Origin: Gemmatimonadales bacterium
GTDB lineage: Bacteria; Gemmatimonadota; Gemmatimonadetes; Gemmatimonadales; GWC2-71-9
DNA: 46,623 nucleotides
Assembly: GCA_036276435.1 (NCBI GenBank)
Contig: DASUOW010000152.1
Span: 1-46,623, forward strand
Direction of reading: 5' to 3'
In this document: piece by piece, positions 8,861 through 45,402 of the stretch
Numbering within the stretch: the first letter of the stretch is position 1
How the letters are laid out: every line of letters starts with the position of its first letter
Translations under genes and position numbers: made by a program
The notes under the pieces: generated by a model
The model's database searches: none
Told to the model about the DNA's origin: nothing
Seen by the model: the letters and a program-made list of their open reading frames with translations, nothing else

Positions 8861-9130
8861 CTACAGCGTCTTACAGATCTTCTTGACCGGCACGACCTTC
8901 CCGCAGGCGATCGTCTCGTCCATGCCGCCCGTGATCGGGCCGCACGCGGTGGAGACCGCGTTGCGCACCGCCTCCTCCTCCGTGGCCGCCGAGGCGGTGG
9001 CCGAGTTGGTGCGGCCGCGGAAGTCGATGTCGACGGCGCACTCGTGGTTCTGCGAGGCGAGCGTGCTGTACAGCAGGTAGCCGCCGAGGAGGAGGAGGAT
9101 GGCGACGGTGATGAGGTTGCCCTTCTTCAT
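8861..9130 (-). CDS. Small secreted or membrane-anchored protein (89 aa) with 4 Cys
   Basis: ATG at 9130 within ORF 8861..9220. MKKGNLITVAILLLLGGYLLYSTLA is a signal peptide or anchor. The mature part has 4 cysteines. I recognised no family. Its stop abuts the yfcC start. Confidence 0.5.
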   Translation of the reverse strand: MKKGNLITVAILLLLGGYLLYSTLASQNHECAVDIDFRGRTNSATASAATEEEAVRNAVSTACGPITGGMDETIACGKVVPVKKICKTL

Positions 9131-9144
9131 GGGGCGCTCCGGTC

Positions 9145-9474
9145 TCAGGCCGACTCGGATTCCTCGGCGAGCCAGCGAAGGTAGGCGTCGCTCCCGTGGA
9201 TCACGGGCAGCGCGATGCATTCAGGGACGTCGTAGGGGTGGAGCTCCAGCAGGCGCCGCTCGAGCGCCGTCAGGCGGGTCGAGGCGGACTTGATCTCGAG
9301 GCGCCACTCGGTGGCGCGCTCGAGCTTCCCGTTCCATCGGTAGATGCTCGTCTGCGGCCCGAGCACCTGCGCGCACGCCGCCAGCCGCTCGGTCACCAGC
9401 GTCTCCGCGACCCGCTCGGCGGTCTCGCGGTCGGCGAAGCTGGTGACCAGGACGACGTACGACGGAAACGACAC
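9145..9474 (-). CDS. cutA: Divalent-cation tolerance protein CutA
   Basis: 109 aa with a GTG start. VVLVTSFADRETAERVAETLVTERLAACAQVLGPQTSIYRWNGKLE...ELHPYDVPECIALPV matches the CutA1 family pattern. Confidence 0.88.
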   Translation of the reverse strand: MSFPSYVVLVTSFADRETAERVAETLVTERLAACAQVLGPQTSIYRWNGKLERATEWRLEIKSASTRLTALERRLLELHPYDVPECIALPVIHGSDAYLRWLAEESESA

Positions 9475-9477
9475 TCG

Positions 9478-9870
9478 CTAGTTCGACTTCCCCGGCAGCC
9501 CGGGTGTCGCCTCGGGCGCGATGCCGTCGCTCACGGGGAGCACGGCGACGCGCCAGCCGCTCTTGAACTGGACCGTCAGGAAGTAGGCCGCGGTGTCGGC
9601 CGTCACGCCCACCACGTCGGGCAGCGACTTCGCGTAGGTGACGGCGGTGCCGATCTGCTCGGCGAACTCCTCCTGCGAGGTGCCCTTGTGGGCCTGCGCG
9701 AGGGCGCGGCCGATGGCAACCTTCTGGGCCTGCTCGGGACCGTACGCCGCGAACTGGTCGCCCGGCAGGTAGCCGTCCTGCTGGTCGAGCTTGCCGTAGC
9801 GGTCGTAGGTGGGGCACCCGCCGAGGGCGAGGGCCAGGGGAAGGACGAGAAGGCCGAGCGCACGACGCAT
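9478..9870 (-). CDS. Lipoprotein of unknown function (130 aa)
   Basis: This is the tail of over-extended ORF 9478..10815, with the ATG at 9870. MRRALGLLVLPLALALGGC has a signal peptide plus a lipobox. Confidence 0.6.
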   Translation of the reverse strand: MRRALGLLVLPLALALGGCPTYDRYGKLDQQDGYLPGDQFAAYGPEQAQKVAIGRALAQAHKGTSQEEFAEQIGTAVTYAKSLPDVVGVTADTAAYFLTVQFKSGWRVAVLPVSDGIAPEATPGLPGKSN

Positions 9871-9990
9871 TGCCGGATCCTGATCGGGTTCGGGTCTGGG
9901 GAGCCAGGCCACGTGCCCGGCGGCCGTAATTATCGGTGTCCGAACGGTTACGCGCAAACGGCCGGGGGGTTCCCCGGTTAGGATATCTCC

Positions 9991-10947
9991 ATGCCGACCC
10001 CCCTCCGCCGGACCCGTCGAGCCCTGCTGCCGGCTCTCGCCCTCCTGGCCACCCTCGCCGCGTGTGGGAAGCGGGAGCAGGCCAGCCCGCTCGTCGTCTT
10101 CAACGCCGGCAGCCTGGCGGCTCCCTTCCGGGACCTCCTGACGGCGTTTCAGGCCGCCAATCCCGGGGCCATTCCGGCCCAGGAGAACTCGGGCAGCCTC
10201 GAGGCGGCGCGGAAGATCACCGAGCTGGGCAAGGTGCCCGACGTCCTGGCCGTGGCCGACTACGCCGTCATCGACCGGCTCGTCCGGCCGGCGCACGCGA
10301 GCTGGCAGGTGATGTTCGCCCGGAACGCGATGGTGCTGGCCTATACCGACCGCTCGGCCGGCGCGGACGAGGTGACCGGCGCCAACTGGTGGCAGGTACT
10401 GCTGCGCCCCGAGGTGCGGGTGGGGCGCTCCGATCCGGCGCTGGACCCGGCCGGCTACCGGGCGCTGATGGTGCTCCAGCTGGCCGAGGCGCACTACGCA
10501 CAGCCGGGCCTGGCGGCGAAGCTCCTGCTGGCGATGCCGCCGCGCTTCGTGCGGCCCAAGGAGGCCGACCTCACGGCGCTGCTGCAGGCGGGCGAGCTCG
10601 ACTATGCGTGGACGTACCGCTCCATCGCGCAGACCACGGGGCTGCGGTTCGTGGAGCTGCCGGCGGAGATCGATCTCGGCGATCCCGCGCTCGCGAGCGG
10701 CTATGCGGCGGCGAAGGTGATGGTGCCGGGCGCGAAGCGGCTGGGCGGCGAGATGCTCGAGCTTGCCGGCGAGCCGATCGTGTATGCGCTCACCATCCCC
10801 ACGGCGGCGCCGCATCCCGAGCTGGCGCGCGCGTTCGTGCGCTTCGTGCTCTCGGATTCGGGGCGGGCGATCATCGAGCGGAACGGGTTGGTGCCGATCG
10901 TGCCGGTGATGGCGACGGGGGAGATGCCGGCGGGGTTGCGGGAGTAG
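9991..10947 (+). CDS. Periplasmic solute-binding lipoprotein, molybdate/tungstate/sulfate-type (ModA/WtpA-like)
   Basis: 318 aa. It has the lipobox LAAC. VVFNAGSLAAPFRDL...ENSGSLEAARKI..GKVPDVLAVADY...RSDPALDPAGYRAL is typical of oxyanion-binding SBP_bac_11-like proteins. No permease or ATPase is adjacent. Confidence 0.7.
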   Translation: MPTPLRRTRRALLPALALLATLAACGKREQASPLVVFNAGSLAAPFRDLLTAFQAANPGAIPAQENSGSLEAARKITELGKVPDVLAVADYAVIDRLVRPAHASWQVMFARNAMVLAYTDRSAGADEVTGANWWQVLLRPEVRVGRSDPALDPAGYRALMVLQLAEAHYAQPGLAAKLLLAMPPRFVRPKEADLTALLQAGELDYAWTYRSIAQTTGLRFVELPAEIDLGDPALASGYAAAKVMVPGAKRLGGEMLELAGEPIVYALTIPTAAPHPELARAFVRFVLSDSGRAIIERNGLVPIVPVMATGEMPAGLRE

Positions 10948-15689: not shown

Positions 15690-16609
15690 GCCGTCACCCG
15701 CGCGCCGGTGCGCGCGAAGTAGGCGTCCTCGAGCGTGGGCGCGCGGAGCACCGAGCGGGTGAGGCCCGTGGCGCCGGCGGCGCGCTCGAGAACGTGCTCC
15801 TTGCGGCCGTCCAGCCCGATGCGCACCGCGCCCTCGCTCGGCACGACGAGCTTCGCGAGCCCCTCACCCTGCAGCGCCGCCGCGAACGCCGCGGCGCCCG
15901 GCCCATCCACCTCGAGCACCGCGTCACCGAACGGTGCCAGCAGCTCGCGCGGCGTGCCGTCGGCCACCACCCGGCCCTTGGCCAGCATGAGCACGCGGTC
16001 GGCGGGTTCGGCCTCGTCGAGGTAGTGGGTCGAGAAGAGCACCGCCGTGCCGCGCGCGCGCCGCTCGGTGTCGAGGAATCCCCACAGCCGCTCGCGGTGC
16101 TCGGGGTCGAGGCCCACGGTGGGCTCGTCGAGGATGAGCAGCGCGGGCGCGTGCAGCGTGGCGCGCGCGATGTCGGCGAGGCGGCGCCAGCCGCCCGACA
16201 GCTCGCGCGCGAGCTGGCCGGCGCGGGGCCCGAGCCCCATGCGTTCCAGCGCACCGTCGACGGCGGCGCGCGTGTCGCGGCGCGCCACCCCGGCCATGCC
16301 GGCGGCGAACTCGAGATTCTCGCGGACGGTGAGGAACGGGTCGACGGTGGGCTCCTGGAACACGAGCCCGAGGCGGCAGCGCGCGGCGCGACGCGCGCCC
16401 GTCACGTCGTGCCCGAAGATGCGCGCACTGCCGCGGCTGGGCGAAAGCAGCGTGGCCAGCAGCAGCATCGCGGTGGTCTTGCCGGCACCGTTGGGCCCGA
16501 GGAGGCCGACCAGCGCGCCGGAGGGCACGACGAGGTCCAGCGCCTCGAGGGCGCGGACCTCGCCGTAGTCGCGGCCGAGGCCGGCGGCCTCGATCGCGGG
16601 GGTGCTCAC
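15686..16609 (-). CDS. ABC transporter ATP-binding protein (DrrA/ABC-2 exporter type)
   Basis: The GTG at 16609 overlaps the pqqE stop (GTGA), giving 307 aa. It has Walker A GPNGAGKTT, the signature LSGGWRR and Walker B LLILDEPTVGLD, plus a C-terminal extension of about 80 aa as in DrrA-like ATPases. Confidence 0.88.
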   Translation of the reverse strand: MSTPAIEAAGLGRDYGEVRALEALDLVVPSGALVGLLGPNGAGKTTAMLLLATLLSPSRGSARIFGHDVTGARRAARCRLGLVFQEPTVDPFLTVRENLEFAAGMAGVARRDTRAAVDGALERMGLGPRAGQLARELSGGWRRLADIARATLHAPALLILDEPTVGLDPEHRERLWGFLDTERRARGTAVLFSTHYLDEAEPADRVLMLAKGRVVADGTPRELLAPFGDAVLEVDGPGAAAFAAALQGEGLAKLVVPSEGAVRIGLDGRKEHVLERAAGATGLTRSVLRAPTLEDAYFARTGARVTA

Positions 16610-17697
16610 GCCGTCTGCGGCTCCGGGGCGATCCTGCGGTAGGTGAACGGCACCTCGCGGCCCGCCTGGCCCAGCGCATCGCTGATCAGGTGATGATGCG
16701 GGCTCAGGTGGCAGATGGGGTCGGCGTTGGCCGCGTCGCCGGTGAGCGCGAACGCCTGGCAGCGGCAGCCGCCGAAGTCGACGCACTTCCGCTCGCAGCT
16801 CACGCACGGCTCCTTCATCCACGCGTCGCCGCGGAACGCGGTGAACAGCGGCGACTCCTGCCAGATCCACTCGAGCGAATGGTCCTTCACGTTCGGCATG
16901 GGGAGCGTGGTGATGTTCGTGGCGCCGTGGCACGGCAGCGCCTTCCCGTCCGGCGCCATCACCACGTACACCTTGCCCCAGCCGCCGTAGCACGGCTTGG
17001 GGTACTTCTCGTAGTAGTCCGGCAGCACGAACACCATCTGCATCCGGCCACGATACTTCTGCCGCAGCCGCTCGGCCACCTCGAAGGCGCGGTCCACCTG
17101 TTCGGGCGAGGGCATGAGCGCCTCGCGGTTCACGAGCCCCCAGCCGTAGTACTGCGTGTTGGCCAGCTCGACGCGGTCGGCGCCCAGGTCGGCGGCGAGC
17201 TCGATGATCTGCTCGATGCGGTCGAGGTTCTCGCGGTGCAGCACCACGTTCACCGTGAAGGCGAAGTCCAGCTCCTTCACCAGCGCCGCGGCGGCCCGCT
17301 TCTGCTTCACCGAGCGCACGCCGGCGATCCGCTCGGCGTTGTCGTCGTCGGCGTCCTGCAGCGAGATCTGGATGTGCTCGAGCCCCGCTTCCTTGAAGCG
17401 CTCGGCGCGCTGGCGGGTCAGGCCGAGGCCCGAGGTCACGAGGGTGGTGTAGAAGCCCTCCCTTCGCGCGTGCTCCGCGATCTCCTCGCAGTCCTTCCGC
17501 ACGAGCGGCTCGCCGCCCGAGAGGCCGAGCTGCAGCACGCCGAGCCGGCGCGCCTCGGTGAGCACGCGCTTCCAGGTGTCGGTGTCGAGCTCCTGGTTCG
17601 CCCGGATGAGGTCGAGCGGATTGGAGCAGTAGGGGCAGTGCAGCGGGCAGCGATGCGTCAGCTCCGCCAGCAGCGTGGTCGGTCGGTCAGTGGTCAC
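16606..17697 (-). CDS. pqqE: PqqA peptide cyclase, radical SAM/SPASM enzyme PqqE
   Basis: 363 aa with a GTG start. It has the CPLHCPYC radical-SAM cluster motif and a C-terminal SPASM cysteine cluster (CYGGWG...CHG...CVSCERKCVDFGGCRCQA). The start overlaps pqqD by 11 nt. Confidence 0.93.
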   Translation of the reverse strand: MTTDRPTTLLAELTHRCPLHCPYCSNPLDLIRANQELDTDTWKRVLTEARRLGVLQLGLSGGEPLVRKDCEEIAEHARREGFYTTLVTSGLGLTRQRAERFKEAGLEHIQISLQDADDDNAERIAGVRSVKQKRAAAALVKELDFAFTVNVVLHRENLDRIEQIIELAADLGADRVELANTQYYGWGLVNREALMPSPEQVDRAFEVAERLRQKYRGRMQMVFVLPDYYEKYPKPCYGGWGKVYVVMAPDGKALPCHGATNITTLPMPNVKDHSLEWIWQESPLFTAFRGDAWMKEPCVSCERKCVDFGGCRCQAFALTGDAANADPICHLSPHHHLISDALGQAGREVPFTYRRIAPEPQTA

Positions 17698-17977
17698 GGA
17701 TCAGCTCCCGCGCGACGAGCCCGTCGAGGTACTCCGTCACGTCCTTGAGGATCTCCTCGACGCTCGCGCTGTCCTCGGCGCCGTAGCGCGACTTGAGCGC
17801 CGCGGCGATGTCGGCAAGCGTGCGACGGCCGTCGAGCAGCTTGAGGATCTCGGCGCCCGTCTCGTTCAGCAGCACCGCGCCCTCGGGATACAGCAGCACG
17901 GGGCGGTTGCGCACGGCGTCGAACTCGACGCGGGCGAAGCGCCAGAGCGAGGGGGTCGAGGTGGGGATGAGCGCCAT
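17687..17977 (-). CDS. pqqD: PQQ biosynthesis peptide chaperone PqqD
   Basis: 96 aa. PVLLYPEGAVLLNETGAEILKLLDGRRTLADI is the PqqD/RRE pattern. It lies between pqqC and pqqE. Confidence 0.9.
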   Translation of the reverse strand: MALIPTSTPSLWRFARVEFDAVRNRPVLLYPEGAVLLNETGAEILKLLDGRRTLADIAAALKSRYGAEDSASVEEILKDVTEYLDGLVARELIRDH

Positions 17978-19328: not shown

Positions 19329-20237
19329 TCAGACGTCGAACGTCATGCCGTCCATCCCGACCTCGATGCCCGCCTGCGCCACGGCGGCGCGCTCGGGCGA
19401 GTCCTCGAGCAGGATGGGATTGGTGTTGTTGATGTGAACGTACACGCGGCGGGGCGTCGCGAGCCCGGCGAGCTGCGCGAGGCTGCCGCCCTCGCCGGAG
19501 AGCGGCAGGTGGTCGATTTCGCGCGCGCGCTTAGTGCCCACGCCGAGCGCGATCATCTCGTCATCGGTCCAGAAGGTGCCGTCGAAGAGCAGCAGGTCGG
19601 CGGCGCCCAGGCGCGCGAGGAGCCGGGCATCGAGGCCGCCGCAGGCCGGTGCATAGGCCAGCGTGCCGCCGGTGCGACGATCGTGCACGAAGAGGCCCAC
19701 GGTATGACCGGGCTCGTCCCGCGATGCGAAGCGCGGCGGCCCCGCCGGCACCACGAACGGTTCCACCGTGATGCCGCTTGGCCCTTCGCCCGGGTGGGCC
19801 AGCTCCGTGGGCATGCCCACCGAGAGGGCGCAGGTGCGCACCTCGGCGAACGCGCGCGTCACGGGCAGGAGGCGCGTGTCGTGGTCGAGGGTGTGCAGCA
19901 CGGGCGGCGTGGCGTACAGCTGGAGCGAGCGGCCCTCGCGCAGCAGCACGAGGCCCAGCGAGTGGTCGAGCTCGGCGTCGGTCAGGACCACGCCGGCCAC
20001 GGCCACGTGCCGGTTCCCCTCGGGCTCCGCCACCGGCAGTCGCGCCAGCTGCTCGCGCACGTCGGGCGAGGCATTGAGCAGGAACCAGCGGTTCCCGTCC
20101 GCGCTCACCGCCACCGACGACTGCGTGCGCGGCCGCGCCCGGCCGGGCTCGCGACGCGCGACCCGGCAGGTGGGGCACCAGCAGTTCCACTGCGGGAAGC
20201 CGCCGCCGGCGGCCGTTCCCAGGAGGATGACCCTCAT
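19329..20237 (-). CDS. pqqB: PQQ biosynthesis protein PqqB (metallo-beta-lactamase fold)
   Basis: 302 aa. MRVILLGTAAGGGFPQWNCWCPTC...LTDAELDH...VHINNTNPIL is the typical PqqB signature. Confidence 0.92.
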   Translation of the reverse strand: MRVILLGTAAGGGFPQWNCWCPTCRVARREPGRARPRTQSSVAVSADGNRWFLLNASPDVREQLARLPVAEPEGNRHVAVAGVVLTDAELDHSLGLVLLREGRSLQLYATPPVLHTLDHDTRLLPVTRAFAEVRTCALSVGMPTELAHPGEGPSGITVEPFVVPAGPPRFASRDEPGHTVGLFVHDRRTGGTLAYAPACGGLDARLLARLGAADLLLFDGTFWTDDEMIALGVGTKRAREIDHLPLSGEGGSLAQLAGLATPRRVYVHINNTNPILLEDSPERAAVAQAGIEVGMDGMTFDV

Positions 20238-20240
20238 CGG

Positions 20241-20267
20241 AATAGAAAAGGCCCGCTTGCGCGAGCC
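20241..20267 (-). terminator. Hairpin plus U-tract between pqqA and pqqB (attenuator or RNA-stabilising stem-loop)
   Basis: On the minus strand, GGCUCGC-GCAA-GCGGGCC is a 7-bp stem (one G-U pair) with a GNRA loop at 20267..20250. It is followed by UUUUCUAUU (20249..20241). The U-tract ends 3 nt before the pqqB ATG. Confidence 0.6.
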
Positions 20268-20293
20268 CCTTCACCCTTCATCACCTGAATCGC

Positions 20294-35025: not shown

Positions 35026-36150
35026 CTATCCGGTCGCGAGCCCCAGCTCCCCCGGTGCGGCCGACAGCTGCCCCCGTTCGGCCTCCTCCTCCACCACGCA
35101 CTGGATGAAGTGCAGCTTGGTGACCACGGCCCGGTTCATCACGAACGGGTAGATGTCCGGCTGCCCCATGCTGCGCGCCGTCTCGTTCAGCACGGCCGTG
35201 AGCACCACCCACGCATTCATCCAGTCGAGGAACATCCCCGCGCTCGCCGCGGGCTCCCGCCGGTAGAGCACGTCCGCGGTGAAGGGCGTGATCTGCAGCC
35301 GGACCTTCGTGGTGTCGATGCCGTAGCTCGCGACGGTCTGCAGCGTCGAGCGCAGGTGCATGTAGTGCGCCCAGCTCTCGGCCCAGTCCTCCCACGGGTG
35401 CATGGTGGCGTAGCTGCTGATGTAGCGATTGCGCCAGTCGGACGGCGGCCCCTCGCGGTAGTTCCGCTGCAGCGCCTCGCCGTAGTCCGCCCGCTCGTCG
35501 CCGAACAGCTCGCGGAAGCGCGGCAGCCACGCCGTGTCGCGGACCAGCACGTTCCAGTAGTAGTGCCCGATCTCGTGGCGCAGGTGCCCGAGCACCGTGC
35601 GGTAGGGCTCGCTGAGCGCGTCGCGGTGCTGCTCGCGGTAGTCGTCGTCGGCTTCGGCGACGTTGATGGTGATGAGCCCGCCGGCGTGGCCGGTGAGCAC
35701 CGGCGGCTCGTCCGGCAGCGACTCGAGGAAGTCGAAGACGAGGCCGGCGGGGTTGTCGGCGCTGCGCGGTCCGATGGGCAGGCCCCAGCTCTGCAGCGCG
35801 AAGAGGAGCCGCCGCTTGGCCGACTCGATGTCCGCCAGCCGCTTGGCGTTCCGCGGCCGCGTGAGGTCGGGAATGGTGCGCGTGAGCCGGCACGAGACGC
35901 AGGCGGTGTGCGGCTCGCCGTCCGGGATGAGCCAGTTGCAGAGCGCCGCCTTCGTCCGGTGCTCGCAGAACCAGAAGCGCGGCGCCGGCCGTCGCGCGTC
36001 GCCCGTCAGCGACCAGGTGCCGTCGCCGTGGGAGGTCAGGGCGCCGAGCGCGTGACTGGTCGGGTCGTAGGCCACCTCCGACCGGCAGGCCAGGCAGTGG
36101 GTGTTGTCGAAGAAGAGCGGCTGGCCGCACGCGCACTGGAACGTCTTCAT
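35026..36150 (-). CDS. Putative zinc-ribbon plus zinc-metallopeptidase domain protein (HExxH)
   Basis: 374 aa. It has an N-terminal Cys-rich zinc ribbon (CACGQ...CLAC, ...CVSC) and an HEIGH zinc motif (LGHLRHEIGHYYW). Its start lies 1 nt after the pflA stop. Confidence 0.7.
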   Translation of the reverse strand: MKTFQCACGQPLFFDNTHCLACRSEVAYDPTSHALGALTSHGDGTWSLTGDARRPAPRFWFCEHRTKAALCNWLIPDGEPHTACVSCRLTRTIPDLTRPRNAKRLADIESAKRRLLFALQSWGLPIGPRSADNPAGLVFDFLESLPDEPPVLTGHAGGLITINVAEADDDYREQHRDALSEPYRTVLGHLRHEIGHYYWNVLVRDTAWLPRFRELFGDERADYGEALQRNYREGPPSDWRNRYISSYATMHPWEDWAESWAHYMHLRSTLQTVASYGIDTTKVRLQITPFTADVLYRREPAASAGMFLDWMNAWVVLTAVLNETARSMGQPDIYPFVMNRAVVTKLHFIQCVVEEEAERGQLSAAPGELGLATG

Positions 36151-36151
36151 G

Positions 36152-36988
36152 TCAGAAGGCCTTCAGCCCTTCCTTCCGGAACACCTCGCACGCCTGCTCG
36201 CACAGCTCGGTCGTCGGCGGCTCGGTGGACGGCAGCGTGTAGTCCAGCCCGAGCCGCTCCCACTTGAAGCGGCCCATCTGGTGGAACGGCAGCACCTCGA
36301 CGCGTTCGACGTTGCCGAGTTTCGCGGCGAAACCCGCGATCCGGGCGATGTCGTCCATGTCGTCGGTGAGGCCCGGCACGAGGACGAAGCGTACCCAGAT
36401 GGGGCGCCGCCGGGCAGCGAGACGCTCGGCGAACGCCAGCGTGTGCGCCGGATCCATGCCCGTCAGGCGGCGGTGTCGGTCGGGGTCCCACGTCTTCAGG
36501 CCGAGCATCACGAGGTCGATGGTATCGAGCTCGGCGTCGGTGAGGTGCTCGCCGTTGTAGCCGTTGGTCTCGATGGTGGTATGGATGCCCATCGCGTGCA
36601 CCGCGCCGAGCAGCTTCGCGGCGAAGCGGTGCTGCATGAGCGGGTCCCCGCCGCTCAGGGTGAAGCCGCCCTTCATGGCCTTCAGGCCGTGGCCGTACTT
36701 CCGCACCTCGTCGGCGGCGCGGGTGACCGTCACCGGCAGCCCGTTGGAGAGGGTCCAGGTGTCCGGGTTGTGGCAGTACCGGCACCGCCACATGCACCCG
36801 GTGGTCCAGGCCACCAGCCGGACGCCGGGACCATCGACGGCGGAGCCGGTGGTGAAGGAGTGCAGGAAGCCCATGTCGCCGGTGCGGAGCGCCGTGCGCA
36901 CGTCGGTCTCCGGCACGCCGGTGCCGAGGTCGACCCGGAGCTCGAAGGGGCTCTTCGCCTCCAGCGGGGTCATCAGCTCCTCAGGCAT
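36152..36988 (-). CDS. pflA: Pyruvate formate-lyase activating enzyme (radical SAM)
   Basis: 278 aa. It has [26 protein letters not shown] (the Cx3Cx2C glycyl-radical activase motif). Its start overlaps the pflB stop by 8 nt. Confidence 0.9.
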
Positions 36989-39257
36989 CGCGCACCTCCC
37001 CGTGGAAGGTACGATTGATGACGTCCATCTGCTGCTCGCGCGTCAGCCGCACGAAGTTCACGGCGTAGCCCGACACCCGGATCGTCAGCGTCGGATACTT
37101 CTCCGGGTGGTCCATCGCGTCGAGCAGCATCTCGCGGTTCAGCACGTTGATGTTCATGTGGAACCCGGTCACGCCGAAGAACGCATCCAGCATCGCCGTC
37201 AGGTTGGTGACGCGATCGCCCTCGACCCGGCCGAGGCCGGAGGGGACGAGCGTGGTGGTGAGCGAGATGCCGTCCGCCGCGTCGCGGAAGGGGATCTTGG
37301 CCACCGACGCCGCCGAGGCGTGGATGCCGTGGCTGTCCCGCCCGTGCATGGGGTTGGCGCCGGGGGCGAACGGCTCGCCCTTGCGGCGGCCGTCGGGGGT
37401 GTTCCCGGTGGCCTTCCCGTACACCACGTTCGAGGTGATGGTGAGGATGGACTGGGTGTGGATGGCATTCCGGTACGTCGGGTACTTCCGCAGCTTCTCC
37501 ATGAAGGTGCTCACGACCCAGGCCGCGATGTGGTCCACGCGGTTGTCGTGGTTCCCGAACATCGGGAAGGTGCCCTCGGTGACGAAGTCGGTGATGAGCC
37601 CCGTCTCGTCGCGCACCGGGCGGACCTTCGCGTACTTGATCGCCGAGAGGCTGTCGGCCACCACCGACAGGCCCGCCATGCCGAACGCCATCGTGCGGAC
37701 CGGCCCGTGGTCGTGCAGGGCCATCTCGATGCGCTCGTAGGCGTACTTGTCGTGCATGTAGTGGATGACGTTCATGGCGCTCACGTACACCTCGGCCAGC
37801 CAGTCCATCATGCGCTCGAGGCGCTCGGCGACCTCGTCGAGCGACAGCACGTCGCCCTGGAGCGGCGCGAGCGCCGGGCCCACCTGCTCGCCCGAGACCT
37901 CGTCACGGCCGCCGTTGATGGCGTAGAGCAGGCACTTGGCCATGTTGGCCCTGGCGCCGAAGAACTGCATCTGCTTCCCGACCGTCATGGGCGAGACGCA
38001 GCACGCGATGGCGCCGTCGTCGCCGAGGGCGCGGCGCATCATCTCGTCGCTCTCGAACTGGAGCGAGCTGGTGTCGATCGCCACCTTGGCCGCGAACCGG
38101 CGGAACCCGTCCGGCAGGCGGGGCGAGTACCAGATGGTGAGGTTCGGTTCCGGCGCCGGCCCCAGGTTGTACAGGGTGTGCAGCACGCGGAAGCTCGTCT
38201 TCGTGACGAGCGGCCGGCCGTCGTCGCCCATCCCGCCGATCGATTCGGTCACCCAGGTCGGGTCGCCGGCGAAGAGCTCGTCGTACTCCGGGGTGCGCAG
38301 GAAGCGCACGATGCGGAGCTTGATGACGAAGTCGTCGATGATCTCCTGGGCCTGTGCCTCGGTGAGCGTGCCGTTCGCGAGGTCGCGCTCGAAGTAGACG
38401 TCGAGGAACGTCGAGACGCGTCCCAGCGACATCGCGGCGCCGTTCTGCTCCTTCACCGCCGCCAGGTAGCCGAAGTAGAGCCACTGCACCGCCTCGGTGG
38501 CGTTGCGCGCCGGCTGGGTGATGTCGAAGCCGTACGCCTTCCCCATCTGCGCCAGCTCCTTCAGCGCGCGGATCTGCTCGGAGAGCTCCTCGCGGTCGCG
38601 GATGATCGCTTCCGACGACGGCAGCGGATCGAGCGCGGCCTTCTCCGCCTGCTTCTGCTCGATGAGGCGCGCCACGCCGTAGAGCGCCACGCGCCGGTAG
38701 TCGCCGATGATCCGGCCGCGGCCGTAGGCGTCCGGCAGGCCGGTCAGGATGTGCGAGCTGCGGCACTTCCGGATGTCGGCGGTATAGGCGTCGAAGACGC
38801 CGTCGTTGTGGGTCTTCCGGTACTTGGTGAAGGTGTCCACGAGCACCGGGTCCGGCTCGTAGCCGTACGCCTTGAGGGCGCTGAGCACCATGCGGATGCC
38901 GCCGTTGGGCATCACGGCGCGCTTGAGCGGGGCGTCGGTCTGGAGGCCGACGATGATCTCGGCGTCCTTGTCGATGTAGCCGGGCGCGTGGGCCGTGATC
39001 GAGCTGGGCACCTGCGAGATGTCCAGCACGCCCTTCTTCCGCTCCTCCTTGAAGAGCTCGGTGAGCGCGGCCCAGATGCGCCGGGTCCGCTCCGTGGCCG
39101 GCTGCAGGAACTGGTGGTCGCCGTCGTAGGGCGTGTAGTTCGTCTGGATGAAGGCGCGAACGTCGATCTGCCTCTGCCAGAGCAGCCCGGTGAATCCCTC
39201 CCATGCGGAAGGCGCTGCCGCGGGTGCGGCCGGCGCCGGTGCCGTCATCGTCATCAT
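36981..39257 (-). CDS. pflB: Pyruvate formate-lyase (formate C-acetyltransferase), a glycyl radical enzyme
   Basis: 758 aa with an AGGAG Shine-Dalgarno. It has the catalytic Cys pair ([10 protein letters not shown]) and the glycyl radical motif [12 protein letters not shown] near the C-terminus. Confidence 0.95.
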
Positions 39258-39278
39258 GTGCTCCTGGATTCTGCGCCC

Positions 39279-40475
39279 TCAGGCGCGGGGGCCGGCGATG
39301 CCGAGCATCGCGCCGGTGTGCCGTGCGATCATCAGTTCCTCGTTGGTCGGGATCACCCAGGCCGAGACCCGGCTGCCCGCCGTGGAGATCCGGGGACCGT
39401 GCCGCTCGTTCGCCGCGGGGTCCAGCGCCACGCCGAGCCAGGCGGACGCCTCGCCGATGCGGCGGCGGATCTCCACCGAGCGCTCGCCGATGCCGGCGGT
39501 GAAGACGATCCCGTCCACGCCGCCCAGCACCGCGGCAAGCGCCCCGACCTGCTTCGCCGCCTGATAGACGAAGTAGTCCACGGCCAGCCGCGCGGCGGGT
39601 TCCGTGCTCGCGAGCAGGTCGCGCATGTCGTTGCTCGTACCGGAGATGCCCAGGAGCCCCGACTGCTTGTAGAGCATCGTCTCCACGTCCTTCGCGGACA
39701 GGCCCAGGCCCTGGAAGAGGTGGAGGATCACGCCGGGGTCCACGGTGCCGGGCCGCGTGCCCATGCAGAGGCCGTCGAGCGCGGTGAAGCCGAGCGTGCT
39801 GTCGACGCTCTTGCGCTGCCTGAGCGCGCACATGCTGGCGCCGCTGCCGAGGTGGGCCACGATCACGCGGCCCTCGGCGATCTCCGGCGCGACCTCGGGC
39901 AGCACCGAGGCGATGTACTCGTAGGACAGGCCGTGAAAGCCGTAGCGCTGCACGCCCGCGTCGCGGACGGCCTTCGGCAGCGGCACCAGTTCGGCCACGG
40001 CGGGCTGGTCGCGGTGGAAGCTGGTGTCGAAGCAGGCGACCTGCGGCACGCCCGGCAGCCGGTCGGCCACGGCCTCGATCGCCGCGATGTTGTGGGGCTG
40101 GTGCAGGGGGGCGAGCGGGACCAGTTGCCTGAGCGCGTCGATCACGGCCGGCGTGACCACGACGGGACCGGCGTACGCCGCGCCGCCGTGCACCACGCGG
40201 TGGCCCACGCCGAGGATGCGGGCGCCGCCGTAGCAGGAGCGGAGCCAGCCGGCGAGCGCCTCGAGGGCTGCGCGGCCGTCGCGCACCGAGGGAGCGAGCG
40301 TCTCGTCGACGAGGAGGGTGCCGTCGCCGTCCTTCGCGCCGAGGCGCGGGGCGGTGCCGATGCCCTCGATCTGGCCGCGTGCCGCGAGCTGCCAGCCGGC
40401 GTCGGCGGGGCGGCGATAGACGCAGAACTTGAGGCTCGACGAGCCGGCGTTGAGTACGAGTGCGTAGTCGTCCAT
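39279..40475 (-). CDS. ackA: Acetate kinase
   Basis: 398 aa. VLNAGSSSLKF, GHRVVHGG, FDTSFH, YGFHGLSY and TAGIGE are acetate/propionate kinase signatures. Confidence 0.93.
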   Translation of the reverse strand: MDDYALVLNAGSSSLKFCVYRRPADAGWQLAARGQIEGIGTAPRLGAKDGDGTLLVDETLAPSVRDGRAALEALAGWLRSCYGGARILGVGHRVVHGGAAYAGPVVVTPAVIDALRQLVPLAPLHQPHNIAAIEAVADRLPGVPQVACFDTSFHRDQPAVAELVPLPKAVRDAGVQRYGFHGLSYEYIASVLPEVAPEIAEGRVIVAHLGSGASMCALRQRKSVDSTLGFTALDGLCMGTRPGTVDPGVILHLFQGLGLSAKDVETMLYKQSGLLGISGTSNDMRDLLASTEPAARLAVDYFVYQAAKQVGALAAVLGGVDGIVFTAGIGERSVEIRRRIGEASAWLGVALDPAANERHGPRISTAGSRVSAWVIPTNEELMIARHTGAMLGIAGPRA

Positions 40476-40497
40476 GTCGCGTCCCTCCGGGCCGCGA

Positions 40498-41448
40498 TCA
40501 GGTCGCGGAAACCTGTCCCTGCCGCCGGGCGTGTGCCGCGAGCACGGCGACCGCGCAGCTGGCGACCTTGGACCGCACGCTGTCGGCGCGGCTGGTCAGG
40601 ATGATGGGCACCCGTGCACCCAGCACGAGGCCGGCGCTGTCGGCGTTGGCCAGGAAGCTCAGCTGCTTCGCGACCATGTTCCCGGCCTCGAGGTCGGGCG
40701 CGAGCAGGATGTCGGGGTCGCCGGCCACGGCCGAGGTGATCTTCTTCACCTTCGCCGCCTCGGCGCTGATCGCGTTGTCGAACGCGAGCGGGCCGTCGAG
40801 CAGGCCGCCGGTGATCTGGCCCCGCTCCGCCATCTTGCAGAGCGCGGCGGCATCGATGGTGGCGGGCATCTTCGACGTCACCGTCTCGACCGCGGCGAGG
40901 ATGGCCACCTTGGGACGCTCCACGCCGAAGGTGCGCGCGAGGTCGATGGCGTTCTGGCAGATGTCGGCCTTCTCGTCGAGCGTCGGCGCGATGTTGATGG
41001 CGCCGTCGGTGACGATCAGCACCTTGTGGTAGGTGGGCACGTCCATCAGGAACACGTGGCTCAGGCGGCGGCCGGTGCGGAGGCCCGTCTCGCGCGCCAC
41101 CACCGCGCCGAGCAGCTCATCGGTGTGGAGGCTGCCCTTCATCAGCAGCTCGGCCCGGCCCTCGCGGACCAGGGCCACCGCCTTCGCGGCGGCGGCGCGG
41201 CTGTCCGCCACGTCCACGATCTCCGCGTCGGCGAGGTCGATGCCGCCCGCGGTCGCGAGCTCCTGGATCTTCGCGGCCGGCCCGACCAGGATCGGCGCGA
41301 TCAGGCCCTCGCGCGCGGCGTCCATGGCCGCGGCCAGCGCCGACGCCTCGCAGGGATACGCCACCGCGGTCGGAATCGGGTCGAGGTCGCGGCAGCGCTC
41401 CAGCACCCGTTCGTACTTGCCCGTTCCGGGCTTGATCGTCGCAGTCAT
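40498..41448 (-). CDS. pta: Phosphate acetyl/butyryl-transferase (short PTA_PTB type)
   Basis: 316 aa. It has LLMKGSLHTDELL, ...VTDGAINIAP...LDGPLAFDNA...PDLEAGN motifs. It lies between sdaA and ackA. Confidence 0.85.
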   Translation of the reverse strand: MTATIKPGTGKYERVLERCRDLDPIPTAVAYPCEASALAAAMDAAREGLIAPILVGPAAKIQELATAGGIDLADAEIVDVADSRAAAAKAVALVREGRAELLMKGSLHTDELLGAVVARETGLRTGRRLSHVFLMDVPTYHKVLIVTDGAINIAPTLDEKADICQNAIDLARTFGVERPKVAILAAVETVTSKMPATIDAAALCKMAERGQITGGLLDGPLAFDNAISAEAAKVKKITSAVAGDPDILLAPDLEAGNMVAKQLSFLANADSAGLVLGARVPIILTSRADSVRSKVASCAVAVLAAHARRQGQVSAT

Positions 41449-41472
41449 CGTGGAATTTCCTCAAGGGACGAC

Positions 41473-41499
41473 GGGGCCGGCCGCAGGGCGGCCGACCCC
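41473..41499 (-). other. GC-rich stem-loop in the sdaA-pta spacer
   Basis: GGGGCCGGCCG-caggg-CGGCCGACCCC is an 11-bp stem with 1 mismatch, flanked by CGAC/GTCG. It has no T-tract and lies inside a co-directional operon. Confidence 0.4.
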
Positions 41500-41538
41500 G
41501 TGTCGTTCATCTCGTCTCCGGCACGGAACCTCGTCCGC

Positions 41539-43161
41539 TCAGCAGAGCACCAGCGAGACCGCGAGGCCGCCTTCCGAGGTCTCCTTGTACTTCGCGTTCA
41601 TCTCCTTCGCGGTGAGCGCCATGGCGTTCACCGTGGTGTCGAAGTCGACCCGGCGGTCGATCGGGATCTCGTTGCTGGCGATCATGAACCCGACCCACGA
41701 CTTCACGGCCCCGAACGCGCAGCGTTCGATGCACGGCACCTGCACGAATCCCGCGACCGGGTCGCAGGTCATGCCGAGGTGGTGCTCCAGCGCCGATTCG
41801 GCCGAGTTGGCCACCACCTGATGCGGGAAGCCGTGCGCCTCGGCGAGGAAGGCCGCGCCCATCGCGGACGCCACCCCGATCTCGGCCTGACAGCCGCCCT
41901 CGGCGCCGGCCAGCGTCGCGTTGTGCTTGCACAGGTAGCCGATGCACGCCGCGGCGAGCATGCCCTTGCGGATCTTCTCCTGCGACAGCTTCCGGCCCCC
42001 GCCCTCGCCCACGATGTAGACCAGGGCCGGCATCACGCCCGCCGAGCCGCCGGTCGGTGCCGTCACGACCAGGTGACCGCGGGCGTTCTCCTCCGAGCCC
42101 GCGAGCGCATACGCCGCCACCACGCCGACGCCGCGCTGGCCCTGGTACTCGTCGTCCATGGCGCGCTTGTAGACCTCGCCGGCCTTCGTCTTCAGCTTGA
42201 TGGGGCCGGGGAGCGTGGCGACCGGTGCATTCAGGCCCGACTTCACGATGTTGGTCATCGCGGTCGTGATCTTGTCGATGAATGCGTTGATCTCGGCCTC
42301 GCTCCGCCCCGAGACGGCCATCTCGTTCGCCATGACCAGCTGCGATATCGATAGCTTGTGCTTGTCGGCGTGCGCCTGCAGCTCCTTCATCGTCGAATAG
42401 GGGTACTTGGGAGCCCCCTTCTTGGGCGGCTCGTAGCCCTTCCACTCGATGAAGCCGCCGCCCACCGAGTAGTACTCCAGCTCGTGCAGCACCTCGGGGC
42501 CGGCCATCAGCTTGCACGTCATGGTATTGGCGTGCGGGAACTCGCCCTTGGGCGCGTCGTAGATGATGTCCTTGAGCGAGACGTCGAACGACTTCTCGCC
42601 CAGCTTCACCGGGAAGCTCTGGTCCGGCTTCGCGGCCAGTTCGTCGAGGAACAGCGGGTCGATCGTCGCCGGCTCCTTGCCGATCACGCCGGCGAGCGCC
42701 GCGCGCTCGGTGCCGTGCCCCTTGCCGGTGGCGCTGAGGCTGCCGAAGAGGTGCACCTTCATGCCCGTGGCCTTGGCCAGGGTCTCCGGCGGGAGCTTGG
42801 TGCAGCGCTCGTAGAAGTCGTAGGTGATGCGCATCGGCCCGATGGTGTGCGAGCTCGAGGGCCCGGGACCGACCTTGTAGAACTCGTCGATCACCGTCAT
42901 CACCGGCCCCTTCGACTTCTTCGCGACGTTCAGCTCGGCCGCGAGCTTGCCGGACGCCGCCGCCGGGGGGGCGGCCGGCGCCTGGGGAAGGTCACCCTTC
43001 TTCGGTCCGGGGATGTTGCAGCCGGTGATCACCGTCGCGGCGCCGATCACGGCACTCTTCATGAGGAAGGTGCGGCGATCCATGCCTTCCGGCACTTCGT
43101 CCGAGGTGAGTTCCGGGATCGGAAAGCGCGAGGGCGCGTCTTCCCCTGTCTTGCGAGACAT
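41539..43161 (-). CDS. sdaA: Single-chain Fe-S L-serine dehydratase with an N-terminal extension of about 87 aa carrying a Tat-like signal and a lipobox
   Basis: 540 aa. The catalytic body starts around MTVIDEFYKVGPGPSSSHTIGPM. It has the beta-domain, then the alpha-domain (VTAPTGGSAGVMPA, CQAEIGVASAM, TCDPVAGFVQVPCIERCA). The extension contains GMDRRTFLMKSAVIGAATVITGC. Codon usage in the extension looks coding. The internal Met88 is an alternative start. Confidence 0.88.
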   Translation of the reverse strand: MSRKTGEDAPSRFPIPELTSDEVPEGMDRRTFLMKSAVIGAATVITGCNIPGPKKGDLPQAPAAPPAAASGKLAAELNVAKKSKGPVMTVIDEFYKVGPGPSSSHTIGPMRITYDFYERCTKLPPETLAKATGMKVHLFGSLSATGKGHGTERAALAGVIGKEPATIDPLFLDELAAKPDQSFPVKLGEKSFDVSLKDIIYDAPKGEFPHANTMTCKLMAGPEVLHELEYYSVGGGFIEWKGYEPPKKGAPKYPYSTMKELQAHADKHKLSISQLVMANEMAVSGRSEAEINAFIDKITTAMTNIVKSGLNAPVATLPGPIKLKTKAGEVYKRAMDDEYQGQRGVGVVAAYALAGSEENARGHLVVTAPTGGSAGVMPALVYIVGEGGGRKLSQEKIRKGMLAAACIGYLCKHNATLAGAEGGCQAEIGVASAMGAAFLAEAHGFPHQVVANSAESALEHHLGMTCDPVAGFVQVPCIERCAFGAVKSWVGFMIASNEIPIDRRVDFDTTVNAMALTAKEMNAKYKETSEGGLAVSLVLC

Positions 43162-43292
43162 AGGCCACCTGTCCTTGGATGCGAGTGCGTGGGGGCGAGA
43201 CTACCTCACCATCTCGAATGTGACGGCGCTCGCCGGCGTCGGCTACTCGCAATTCTCTCAGGTGGCCCGACGATGAAAGGACGGTGAAGGGA

Positions 43293-44696
43293 TCATGGCC
43301 GCGGCACCACCGCGAGCTCCCGCACCAGCCGGTAGAGGAATTCCTGCCCCTCGTAGAACGACTCCACCTTCATCCGCTCGTCCCGCCCGTGCGCCCGGTT
43401 GTCCTCGATGTCGCCGAAGAGGCCCGAGACGCCGTACACCGGGATGCCCGCGTTGCGGAAGAAGATGCCGTCGGTGGCGCCCGTGCTCATGAAGGGCACG
43501 ACCGGCACGCCGGGCCACATGCTCGCCGTCTGGCGCTCGATGGCGCCGAGGATCGCGGGATCGAGCGGCGTGGGGTCGCTCACCACGCCGGAATGGGCCT
43601 CGCGCAGCACCGAGATCGCGACGCCGGGATCGTCGATCGCGCGGGCCAGCGCGGCCTGGACCTCCTCGGGCCGCTCGCCGGGCAGCAGGCGGCAGTTCAC
43701 GGTGGCGCGCGCCTGCTGCGGCAGCGCATTCGAGGCGTGGCCCGCCTCCACGAGCGTCGCCACGCAGGTGGTGCGGAGGATGGCGCGCGTGAGCGGCTCG
43801 GCGTCGAGTGCGGTGAGGGCGGCCCGGTCGGCGGGGTTGCGCGCGATGGCGGCCATGGACTGGCCGAGGGGACCCGGCTCGAGCGGCGCCATGCGGCGGA
43901 AGTACTCGCGCGTGGTCTCGTTGAGGCGCGCGGGGAACTCGACCGCCTGCACCTTGAGCAGTGCCGCCGCGAGCCGGTAGATCGGCGTGTCCTTCCGCGG
44001 GATCGAGCTGTGGCCGCCCCGGTCGCGCGCCTCGAGCACGAACGACTGGTAGACCTTCTCCGTCGTCTGCACCCGGTTGGCGAGCCGCTTGCCGTCGCGC
44101 CGGGCGCCGCCGCCGCCCTCGTTGAGCACGAATGCGCTGCGCACGAGCGCCGGGTGCTCCTTCACGAGCCAGGCAGCGCCGTTGTCGGGGCCGCCCTCCT
44201 CGTCGGCGGTGAGGGCCACGATCAGGTCGCGGTCGGGCACGAAGCCCTCGCGCCGGTACCGGATCAGGTTGGCGATCCAGATGGCGGCCATCGCCTTGTC
44301 GTCCACCGTGCCGCGGCCGTAGAACCAGCCGTCCTGCTCGGTGAGCTCGAAGGGCGCGATCGTCCAGTCGCTCGCGCGCGCCTCGACCACGTCGATGTGC
44401 GCGAGCAGCAGGATCGGCGGCGCCGCGCCGCGGCCGCGATAGCGCGCGACCAGGTTGCCCTTCCGCGCCACGGGCTCGAGCACCTGCACGTCCTCCTTCG
44501 GCAGGCCGGCGGCCAGGAGCCGCTTCGCCATCGCCTCGGCGGCGACGGTGGTGCTGCCGGTGGAGTGCGACGTGTTGATGCCGACGAGCTCCGCGTAGAT
44601 CTCGCGCGCCAGCGCCTTGTCGAGCGGCGGGGAGTTCGGGATGGACTGGGCGGCAAGGGGCGCGGCAAGCAGCAGCAGCGCGACGGGGAGACGCAT
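43293..44696 (-). CDS. Secreted M20/M25/M40 family metallopeptidase
   Basis: 467 aa with the signal peptide MRLPVALLLLAAPLAAQS. It has M20 metal and catalytic motifs (LLAHIDVV, GRGTVDDK, TADEEGG). Confidence 0.85.
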   Translation of the reverse strand: MRLPVALLLLAAPLAAQSIPNSPPLDKALAREIYAELVGINTSHSTGSTTVAAEAMAKRLLAAGLPKEDVQVLEPVARKGNLVARYRGRGAAPPILLLAHIDVVEARASDWTIAPFELTEQDGWFYGRGTVDDKAMAAIWIANLIRYRREGFVPDRDLIVALTADEEGGPDNGAAWLVKEHPALVRSAFVLNEGGGGARRDGKRLANRVQTTEKVYQSFVLEARDRGGHSSIPRKDTPIYRLAAALLKVQAVEFPARLNETTREYFRRMAPLEPGPLGQSMAAIARNPADRAALTALDAEPLTRAILRTTCVATLVEAGHASNALPQQARATVNCRLLPGERPEEVQAALARAIDDPGVAISVLREAHSGVVSDPTPLDPAILGAIERQTASMWPGVPVVPFMSTGATDGIFFRNAGIPVYGVSGLFGDIEDNRAHGRDERMKVESFYEGQEFLYRLVRELAVVPRP

Positions 44697-44857
44697 GAGG
44701 GCGAATCCTGACGATGGAAGGAGTGGTGGAGGATCGTGCGGCGCGGTTTGCGAGGCAAGAGGCGCCGCTGTGCGTCGATATGATGACGGGGGCCGGTCGG
44801 CACCGCGCGATCATGGGGCATGCCCCCTTGCGTCCCTTCTCCCGCCGAGCCGACTAT

Positions 44858-45402
44858 ATGGGCATGGCTGCGCCGCTCTACTACAGCGCCGAGATGGTCC
44901 GGCAACTGCCGGACGACGGCAACCGGTACGAGGTCGTGCACGGGGAGCTGCTGGTGACCCCGTCGCCACGGCCTCTCCACCAGCTCGTGCTCGCCCGGCT
45001 GCAGCTCGCGGTCGGGAAGTATCTGGAGCGCGAGCCCATCGGCGTGCTGCTGTCCTCGCCGGCAGACATCTCGTGGGCGCCCGATGTGCTCGTCCAGCCC
45101 GACCTGTTCGCCGTGGACATGGACGAGGCGCGCACCATGACGTGGGCGCGCATGCAGCACCTGCCGCTGGTGGTGGAGGTCCTGAGTCCGTCCTCCACCC
45201 GGGCCGATCGCTTCACCAAGCGACGGCTCTACCAGGAAGTCGGCGTGCCACTCTACTGGATGGTGGATGCGGACGCGCAGCTGGTGGAGCGCTGGACGCC
45301 CGACATGACCTTTCCCGCCTTCGAACGCGAACGGCTCGCGTGGCACCCCGAGGGGGCCCGCGAGCCGTTCACGCTGGATCTCGTCGAGCTCTTCCGGCCG
45401 CT

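Follow-up and report, generated by a model that had tools for sequence, protein, structure and literature searches.

The window analysed here is a stretch of 46,623 nt from contig DASUOW010000152.1 of a Gemmatimonadales bacterium (assembly GCA_036276435.1). On its minus strand lies a gene for an iron-sulfur (Fe-S) L-serine dehydratase, called SDH below, which heads a contiguous same-strand cassette that also encodes Pta, AckA, PFL and PflA. Textbooks place Fe-S L-serine dehydratases (L-SDs) in the cytoplasm; their cluster is oxygen-labile. The subject of this report is a predicted signal for export and lipid anchoring that is strongly conserved on this normally cytoplasmic enzyme and common to hundreds of soil bacterial species. 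An earlier reading of the window, made from the letters alone (the sequence-only reading), had placed an L-serine dehydratase at 41539-43161 and had given no strand; Pfam, TIGR00720 and the match to PDB entry 4rqo bear out this assignment, and the strand is minus.

The features of the SDH gene are listed below. Residue conservation was read from an alignment of 50 sequences. The codon alignment comprised the window and 73 GTDB loci, and the measure taken from it was the share of synonymous changes among differing codon pairs (synonymous share). An AlphaFold model (AF2) of modest quality (pLDDT 66) was used solely for the pattern of disorder and helix at the N terminus.

41539..43161, minus strand: complete open reading frame (ORF) for a single-chain (type 2) Fe-S L-serine dehydratase precursor of 540 aa (TIGR00720, 4rqo match)
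43081..43161, minus strand: signal n-region, aa 1-27, acidic and variable in sequence, with P24 and G26 at least 90% conserved (residue alignment; AF2 disorder at 1-23)
43057..43080, minus strand: twin-arginine (RR) motif D28-R-R-T-F-L-M-K35 (invariant D28, R29, R30 and F32; TIGR01409 match at aa 28-47)
43021..43056, minus strand: signal h-region S36-G47 (SAVIGAATVITG), weakly hydrophobic and without Leu (Kyte-Doolittle values, AF2 helix, synonymous share 0.52)
43018..43029, minus strand: lipobox I45-T-G-C48, predicted site of Lgt and LspA, at which Cys48 would be the lipidated N terminus (motif [LVI][ASTVI][GAS]C)
42946..43017, minus strand: Pro/Ala-rich linker, aa 49-72, unconstrained in sequence and constrained in length (synonymous share 0.19; AF2 disorder)
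42898..42945, minus strand: conserved pre-core, aa 73-88 (L-S-x-D-L-x-V-V-K-K-x-K-G-P-V-M), ending at Met88, the ancestral start position (codon and residue alignments)
42439..42885, minus strand: SDH beta domain, aa 93-241, with the catalytic His149 in TGKGHGT (Pfam, 4rqo alignment, residue alignment)
41560..42363, minus strand: SDH alpha (catalytic) domain, aa 267-534, with cluster ligands C424, C466 and C477, followed by the C-terminal C540 (Pfam, 4rqo alignment, residue alignment)

Pfam detected SDH_beta (1.8e-37, 129.5 bits) and SDH_alpha (6.2e-64, 216.6 bits) at the positions listed, and the single-chain model TIGR00720 (sda_mono) scored 383 bits, with a cut-off of 345.1. The L-SD of Legionella (LpLSD, PDB 4rqo) matched with E=3e-81, in an alignment that begins at aa 90. 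C424, C466 and C477 align with the cluster ligands of LpLSD, H149 with its His61 and the last residue, C540, with its Cys458; all of these are invariant in the 50-sequence alignment. The roles of the cluster cysteines, the catalytic histidine and the C-terminal cysteine of L-SDs are those given in a passage of PMC12647591 that cites Thoden et al. 2014. Judged by all sequence-level criteria of the family, SDH is a catalytically intact [4Fe-4S] L-serine dehydratase, with L-serine as the probable substrate; database names for the relatives read simply 'L-serine ammonia-lyase', and no record in the contig index matched the window protein exactly.

About 87 residues precede the canonical L-SD start, which falls at Met88 (nt 42898-42900). 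The ORF itself begins with ATG, and no in-frame ATG, GTG or TTG occurs between this codon and the upstream stop at ~43200. The sequence-only reading had described an extension of about 87 aa (...EGMDRRTFLMKSAVIGAATVITGCNIPGPKK) with an RR motif, a hydrophobic core and a lipobox. We read exactly the same sequence, more fully MSRKTGEDAPSRFPIPELTSDEVPEGM-DRRTFLMK-SAVIGAATVITG-C-NIPGPKK..., with R29-R30 at nt 43072-43077 and Cys48 at nt 43018-43020. Its remark that GC3-rich codon usage runs across the extension also holds: G+C at third codon positions (GC3) is 0.86 in codons 1-87 and 0.96 in the core, whereas the intergenic DNA upstream has an overall GC of 0.63.

Conservation among orthologues had been proposed as a check on the extension, and it was found in every close homologue (120 out of the best 120 database homologues, 77-91% identity, 514-584 aa). 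The window and 73 of 80 related loci keep the extension as an open, in-frame sequence; here and below, related loci are the best 80 GTDB loci, and counts for the cassette use only those with enough downstream sequence. Signals and processing sites were surveyed in 201 related sequences. RR-x-F-[LM] is kept in 195 of them, a degree of conservation far beyond chance. In the 50-sequence alignment D28, R29, R30 and F32 are invariant, while P24, G26, M34, R35 and A37 reach 90% conservation or more. Codon comparison shows purifying selection on the RR and hydrophobic region, whose synonymous share is 0.52, the same as in the pre-core (aa 73-88); in the catalytic domains the share is 0.66-0.69, and in the Pro/Ala linker just 0.19. 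All relatives have 61-68 aa between RR and the core (GPGPSSSH motif).

RR is missing from six of the 201 sequences. Contig ends cut off two of these and one more is broken; in L076 the entire signal is deleted, and L041 and L047 read D-S-R in place of D-R-R but keep the lipobox. L041, L047 and L076 (SDH at about 8001-9611) all lie outside the Pta-AckA-PFL cassette, and may be paralogues drifting away from export via twin-arginine translocation (Tat).

DRRTFLMK at aa 28-35 fits the Tat consensus used here (S/T-R-R-x-F-L-K at the boundary of n-region and h-region). In Tat signals the h-region is of lower hydrophobicity than in Sec signals, and the c-region after it, which holds the cleavage site, often includes a basic residue. 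The best 12-mer of the h-region has a Kyte-Doolittle (KD) value of 1.93 and no Leu (family mean 1.89), while four Sec-type signals of the same window reach KD 2.3-2.8 with five to six Leu; the comparison favours a Tat-like rather than a Sec-like character for the signal. TIGR01409 (TAT_signal_seq) scored 18.6 bits on aa 27-56, above its cut-off of 16.7. In the AF2 model residues 1-23 and 51-88 are disordered, a lone helix spans 29-46 and the fold starts at about residue 91, so the modelled N terminus would be a signal peptide plus tether, not a part of the enzyme fold. An in-window contrast to the SDH signal is seen in a solute-binding protein (SBP_bac_11, 9982-10947, plus strand), whose N terminus, MPTPLRRTRRALLPALALLATLAAC, has arginine pairs, a Leu-rich core and a lipobox, LAAC.

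The lipobox, for which we used the definition given in PMC12462473, is not a family-wide feature. RR and lipobox occur together in 146 of the 195 RR-bearing sequences; the other 49, about a quarter of the orthologues, have RR and no Cys. Most of these 49 have, in the lipobox position, a basic residue followed by a site of signal peptidase I (SPase I) type, such as VITGR-AISA|EE, GRPVPANA|Q and GRSISA|QE. The two types follow lineage labels. The window protein and its closest relatives (P0001-P0003) carry the lipobox Cys, and most Acidobacteriota-labelled loci are of the lipobox type; the 16 loci that carry the label Gammaproteobacteria, Steroidobacteraceae, proteobacterium, Deltaproteobacteria or Myxococcota all belong to the soluble (Cys-less) type. 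Processing sites are thus swapped while RR and the hydrophobic region stay, a pattern that makes sense only for export and hence argues for a working export signal. This swap is, among the sequence comparisons, the most telling result.

The genes that follow SDH, all contiguous on the minus strand, are listed below with a hairpin found in the first intergenic gap.

40498..41448, minus strand: phosphate acetyltransferase Pta (short PTA_PTB type), the next cassette gene (PRK11890, 505 bits)
39279..40475, minus strand: acetate kinase AckA (Pfam Acetate_kinase, 347.5 bits)
36981..39278, minus strand: pyruvate formate-lyase PFL (formate C-acetyltransferase; TIGR01255, 1132 bits, cut-off 994)
36152..37042, minus strand: PFL-activating radical-SAM enzyme PflA (TIGR02493, 264 bits, cut-off 232)
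41471..41501, minus strand: strong G+C hairpin of 14 bp, ACGGGGUCGGCCGC-CCU-GCGGCCGGCCCCGU, without a U-tract, in the 90-nt gap between SDH and pta (z = -2.1)

Synteny in the related loci was found for Pta in 59 of 75, for AckA in 59 of 71, for PFL in 46 of 64 and for PflA in 43 of 61. A transporter of the major facilitator superfamily (MFS, about 400-420 aa) is encoded in 55 of 77 loci; in 50 loci it stands immediately downstream of SDH on the same strand, and the stop and start codons often overlap. The single-strand order SDH-(MFS)-Pta-AckA-PFL-PflA is conserved across the labelled phyla. It is the most informative context of SDH, and was absent from the sequence-only reading. The MFS proteins match the anion:cation symporter (ACS) family TIGR00893 weakly (69-78 bits, with cut-offs near 395), and no PDB relative was found for them by sequence; their substrate is, for these two reasons, a matter of inference.

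The hairpin between SDH and pta was not called as a terminator in the intrinsic terminator scan. It is located where most relatives have the MFS gene, so that a remnant of that gene is conceivable; it may also be an attenuator or an mRNA stabiliser. Scans of 39000-45000 for sigma-70 promoters and intrinsic terminators gave nothing relevant. An FNR/CRP-type box (TTGAT-N4-ATCAA, up to two mismatches) within 300 nt upstream of SDH was present in 3 of 68 loci, compared with 2.2 in shuffled sequences, and gives no support for such regulation.

Upstream of SDH, neighbours are diverse across loci (OEP, ADH, a DASS transporter, a sigma-54 activator, a histidine kinase, DUF2950), and the search of the related loci for a conserved upstream partner found none. 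A DcaP-type outer-membrane porin stands directly upstream in some Bryobacteraceae loci and in the Binatia loci. The gene directly upstream in the window encodes an M20/M28-family peptidase (43293-44696, minus strand) with a Sec-type signal (MRLPVALLLLAAPLAAQ); it is syntenic in none of the 80 loci. A crude all-against-all clustering of neighbouring ORFs revealed no further conserved member of the cassette, no TatA-like ORF was found in the window, and no pyridoxal phosphate (PLP)-dependent dehydratase in the cassette loci.

At the other end of the cassette, a gene for a zinc-ribbon plus Peptidase_Mx protein (35026-36162, minus strand) shares 11 nt with the end of pflA, and because of this overlap it may be co-transcribed with the cassette here. 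It was not seen after pflA in two loci with pflA called (L081 and L083), where a gene for an enoyl-CoA hydratase lies nearby instead. In one Acidobacteriota contig (L082, 13810-16086) gene calling split PFL into two fragments (297 and 352 aa), which may be a pseudogene or an assembly error. Two contigs of one Bryobacteraceae metagenome-assembled genome (MAG; CAWJQP01, loci L005 and L044) each carry a signal-bearing SDH with a DcaP-like porin gene upstream and pta downstream; the cassette is duplicated in this genome or bin. Elsewhere in the window, Pfam domains identify a radical-SAM/SPASM protein and a metallo-beta-lactamase-fold protein (16606-17700 and 19329-20270, minus strand), which in our view resemble PqqE and PqqB and may mark a cluster for PQQ biosynthesis.

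Relatives of SDH were found in at least 545 GTDB species genomes. The best 80 come from MAGs labelled Acidobacteriota (Vicinamibacteria, Bryobacteraceae, Thermoanaerobaculia and Terriglobia), Myxococcota, Steroidobacteraceae, other Gammaproteobacteria, Binatia and Verrucomicrobiia, and share 72-82% protein identity across the phylum labels. Between MAGs of differing phylum labels, identity is about 70-85% for each of SDH, Pta, AckA and PFL. Since identity stays so high, the sequences suggest lateral spread of the whole cassette among soil bacteria. When a library is clustered at 50% identity, the clade forms what is essentially a single cluster; its closest signal-less relative, from Nitratidesulfovibrio, is 48% identical.

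Three other lineages of the L-SD subfamily carry an N-terminal signal, two with RR and one with KR. These are a Syntrophales MAG lineage (P0129, MDRRDFCK...TLA|K), a Desulfovibrionaceae MAG lineage (P0134, MTLRRTFLK...) and an unplaced lineage with HKRCFLK and a lipobox (P0153). A divergent fragment (P0235) reads SRRDLGL...FASC, and its pre-core resembles that of the main clade. In a rough neighbour-joining tree the signal-bearing lineages fall in one subfamily, interleaved with signal-less ones; the tree cannot decide between a single gain of the signal with losses and several gains. In one Desulfovibrionaceae MAG (L089, 547-7823) the RR-signal L-SD lineage P0134/P0278 follows two large genes for PPDK_N plus PEP-utilizers proteins. 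The two genes flank those for a dCache histidine kinase and a response regulator, a differing context, related to pyruvate and phosphoenolpyruvate (PEP).

Taken together, these data make it probable that SDH is a Tat-exported, lipid-anchored periplasmic serine deaminase whose pyruvate is imported and fermented anaerobically. SDH would fold and gain its [4Fe-4S] cluster in the cytoplasm, be exported in the folded state by TatABC, and be lipidated and cleaved at Cys48 by Lgt and LspA. The mature enzyme would then be tethered by the flexible Pro/Ala linker of ~40 residues on the periplasmic side of a membrane, where it would convert L-serine to pyruvate and ammonium. In most relatives, pyruvate would be taken up by the organic-anion-type MFS transporter encoded immediately downstream; in the window organism, its carrier would have to be encoded elsewhere. 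PFL, PflA, Pta and AckA would then convert pyruvate to acetate and formate with a gain of ATP. As PFL belongs to the glycyl-radical enzymes, the cassette would presumably act under anoxia, which would make an oxygen-labile cluster viable in the periplasm.

Several observations weigh against this reading. On aa 1-60 TIGR01409 scored 16.2 bits, borderline to its cut-off of 16.7, and the Pfam model TAT_signal (PF10518) reached 8.7-9.4 bits, far under its cut-off of 22.7. The window cassette is of the minority arrangement in which pta follows SDH directly with no MFS gene between; 22 of the 77 loci lack the gene. PFL, PflA, Pta and AckA are all cytoplasmic, so a cytoplasmic dehydratase would make the simpler pathway, and we know of no periplasmic member among the oxygen-labile Fe-S L-SDs. 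Since 71 of 76 loci still have Met at the ancestral start, Met88, a cytoplasmic isoform is conceivable. Finally, every relative comes from an uncultured MAG or a metagenome, so that the taxon labels used above are approximate.

The retention of Met88 leads to a first alternative, dual localisation, in which the long precursor is exported and a cytoplasmic isoform initiated at Met88 feeds PFL directly. Met88 stands at the canonical L-SD start, close to aa 90 where the 4rqo alignment begins; the codons of K85-G86 (AAG-GGN) can be read as a Shine-Dalgarno-like AAGGGG or AAGGGA 6-7 nt before it; and the isoform would be in one compartment with all the downstream enzymes. We still hold this alternative to be unlikely. 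In five of the 76 loci Met88 is replaced by Ile (ATC), and other signal-bearing L-SD lineages have no Met at the equivalent position. At Gly86, 32 of 66 loci have GGG or GGA. This seems more than overall Gly codon usage would suggest, but the excess is not significant when the Gly codons after AAG in the rest of these genes are taken as the reference (38%, p=0.10), so an internal Shine-Dalgarno sequence is unsupported. K-G-P-V-M-T is conserved as amino acids, which points to constraint at the protein level around Met88.

A second alternative accepts export but gives SDH a role other than entry to the PFL pathway: it might release ammonium in the periplasm so that nitrogen can be scavenged, remove serine as a toxic compound, or act on a different beta-hydroxy amino acid, with the MFS protein carrying, e.g. 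formate, acetate or serine. The weak ACS likeness of the transporter and the want of a PDB relative leave space for such roles, as does its absence from the window and from over a quarter of the loci; a few signal-bearing copies lie outside the cassette, and the Desulfovibrionaceae lineage adjoins PPDK_N/PEP-utilizers genes instead. Arguably, the tight one-strand gene order kept across the labelled phyla makes all this improbable, and the catalytic residues are those of L-serine-specific enzymes.

It is very improbable that the RR peptide is no export signal at all but a cytoplasmic docking or regulatory peptide, bound by a chaperone, for instance, or serving as a tether to the inner membrane face or to a transporter. 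The unusually long n-region with its conserved P-x-G-x-D before RR would suit such a role, and P-x-G-x-D exceeds the known needs of Tat recognition. The weakly hydrophobic core of 12 residues is, however, not long enough to serve as a transmembrane anchor, the cassette has no conserved chaperone gene, and the alternation of lipobox and SPase I sites after the hydrophobic region has no rationale without membrane crossing and cleavage. The sequence-only reading had left two options, an exported lipid-anchored enzyme or a start at Met88 with the extension a relic; the former, with a working Tat signal, is favoured by the sequences, while the latter, in spite of the position of Met88 and the Shine-Dalgarno-like AAGGGG before it in the window, is effectively refuted by an extension that is universal in close homologues and open in nearly all loci, with RR and F32 invariant, a coding-like GC3, purifying selection and Met88 itself replaced by Ile in some loci.

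Beyond the probable export of SDH, we put forward a broader model tentatively, as a possibility that falls short of an even chance. In this model a laterally spreading cassette (five genes here; six, with the MFS gene, in most relatives) divides the fermentation of serine between the two sides of the inner membrane. The exported SDH, with a lipid anchor in Acidobacteriota and in soluble form in Proteobacteria and Myxococcota, would make pyruvate and ammonium in the periplasm, so that the reactive intermediate 2-aminoacrylate and excess serine are kept from the cytoplasm; the dedicated MFS transporter would import pyruvate for substrate-level phosphorylation by PFL, Pta and AckA in anoxic soil microsites. 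If SDH is indeed exported, the [4Fe-4S] hydro-lyase class would gain its first periplasmic member, Tat cargo would extend to a non-redox Fe-S hydro-lyase, and amino-acid deamination would be seen to be relocatable to the periplasm. Two questions would follow: how an oxygen-labile cluster survives outside the cytoplasm, and whether the compartmentation avoids toxicity of 2-aminoacrylate or serine. A PFL cassette found, at 72-82% protein identity, in MAGs labelled as several phyla of nominally aerobic soil bacteria also points to a shared fermentative survival module for anoxic soil niches.

Literature searches across 8.3 million searchable papers for a Tat-dependent, periplasmic or exported serine dehydratase found no description of one, and a search for an SDH-PFL cassette in Acidobacteria returned nothing relevant. 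The closest known enzymes are the type 2 L-SDs (E. coli SdaA, SdaB and TdcG, and LpLSD of 4rqo). They have the same beta-alpha order in one chain and the same conserved catalytic and cluster residues as SDH, but they start at the Met88 position and are cytoplasmic, whereas SDH adds 87 aa of Tat/lipoprotein signal and linker. By its sequence SDH belongs to a distinct L-SD subfamily.

The cassette resembles the E. coli tdcABCDEFG operon, which likewise combines a hydroxy-amino-acid dehydratase, a PFL-type formate-lyase and an acyl kinase, and also a transporter (here, in the relatives). The tdc operon serves anaerobic degradation of threonine and serine, with substrate-level ATP formation under anoxia; all tdc enzymes are cytoplasmic, and TdcC is a HAAAP-family transporter that imports the amino acid. 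Unlike tdc, the cassette has a dehydratase with an export signal, includes Pta and PflA, and in the relatives has a weakly ACS-like MFS transporter; it has no counterpart of the HAAAP importer (TdcC) or of the PLP dehydratase (TdcB).

Tat-exported Fe-S proteins include hydrogenase small subunits, Rieske proteins, HiPIP and subunits of the NrfC/DmsB type. The logic proposed for SDH is the same, with the cluster inserted in the cytoplasm and the folded protein exported by means of an RR signal. These proteins, however, work in electron transfer, whereas SDH is a non-redox hydro-lyase whose cluster has an exposed substrate-binding iron, and we know of no report of such a cluster in the periplasm.

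Tat-dependent lipoproteins are known from haloarchaea (PMC2945643), and RR signals that end in a lipobox have been described (PMC2945643, PMC12462473). The predicted SDH signal shares the RR plus lipobox arrangement with the lipoproteins of haloarchaea and Streptomyces, its lipobox being I-T-G-C. It differs in that the hosts are, by their MAG labels, diderm soil bacteria, and in that orthologues alternate between lipoprotein and soluble forms by lineage.

As to the proposed physiology, the nearest parallel is the concept of converting a substrate in the periplasm and then importing the product. Campylobacter jejuni AnsB and GGT are periplasmic deamidases whose product is then imported and catabolised; they are cofactor-free hydrolases exported by Sec. 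SDH would apply the same concept with a Tat-type, Fe-S-dependent lyase.

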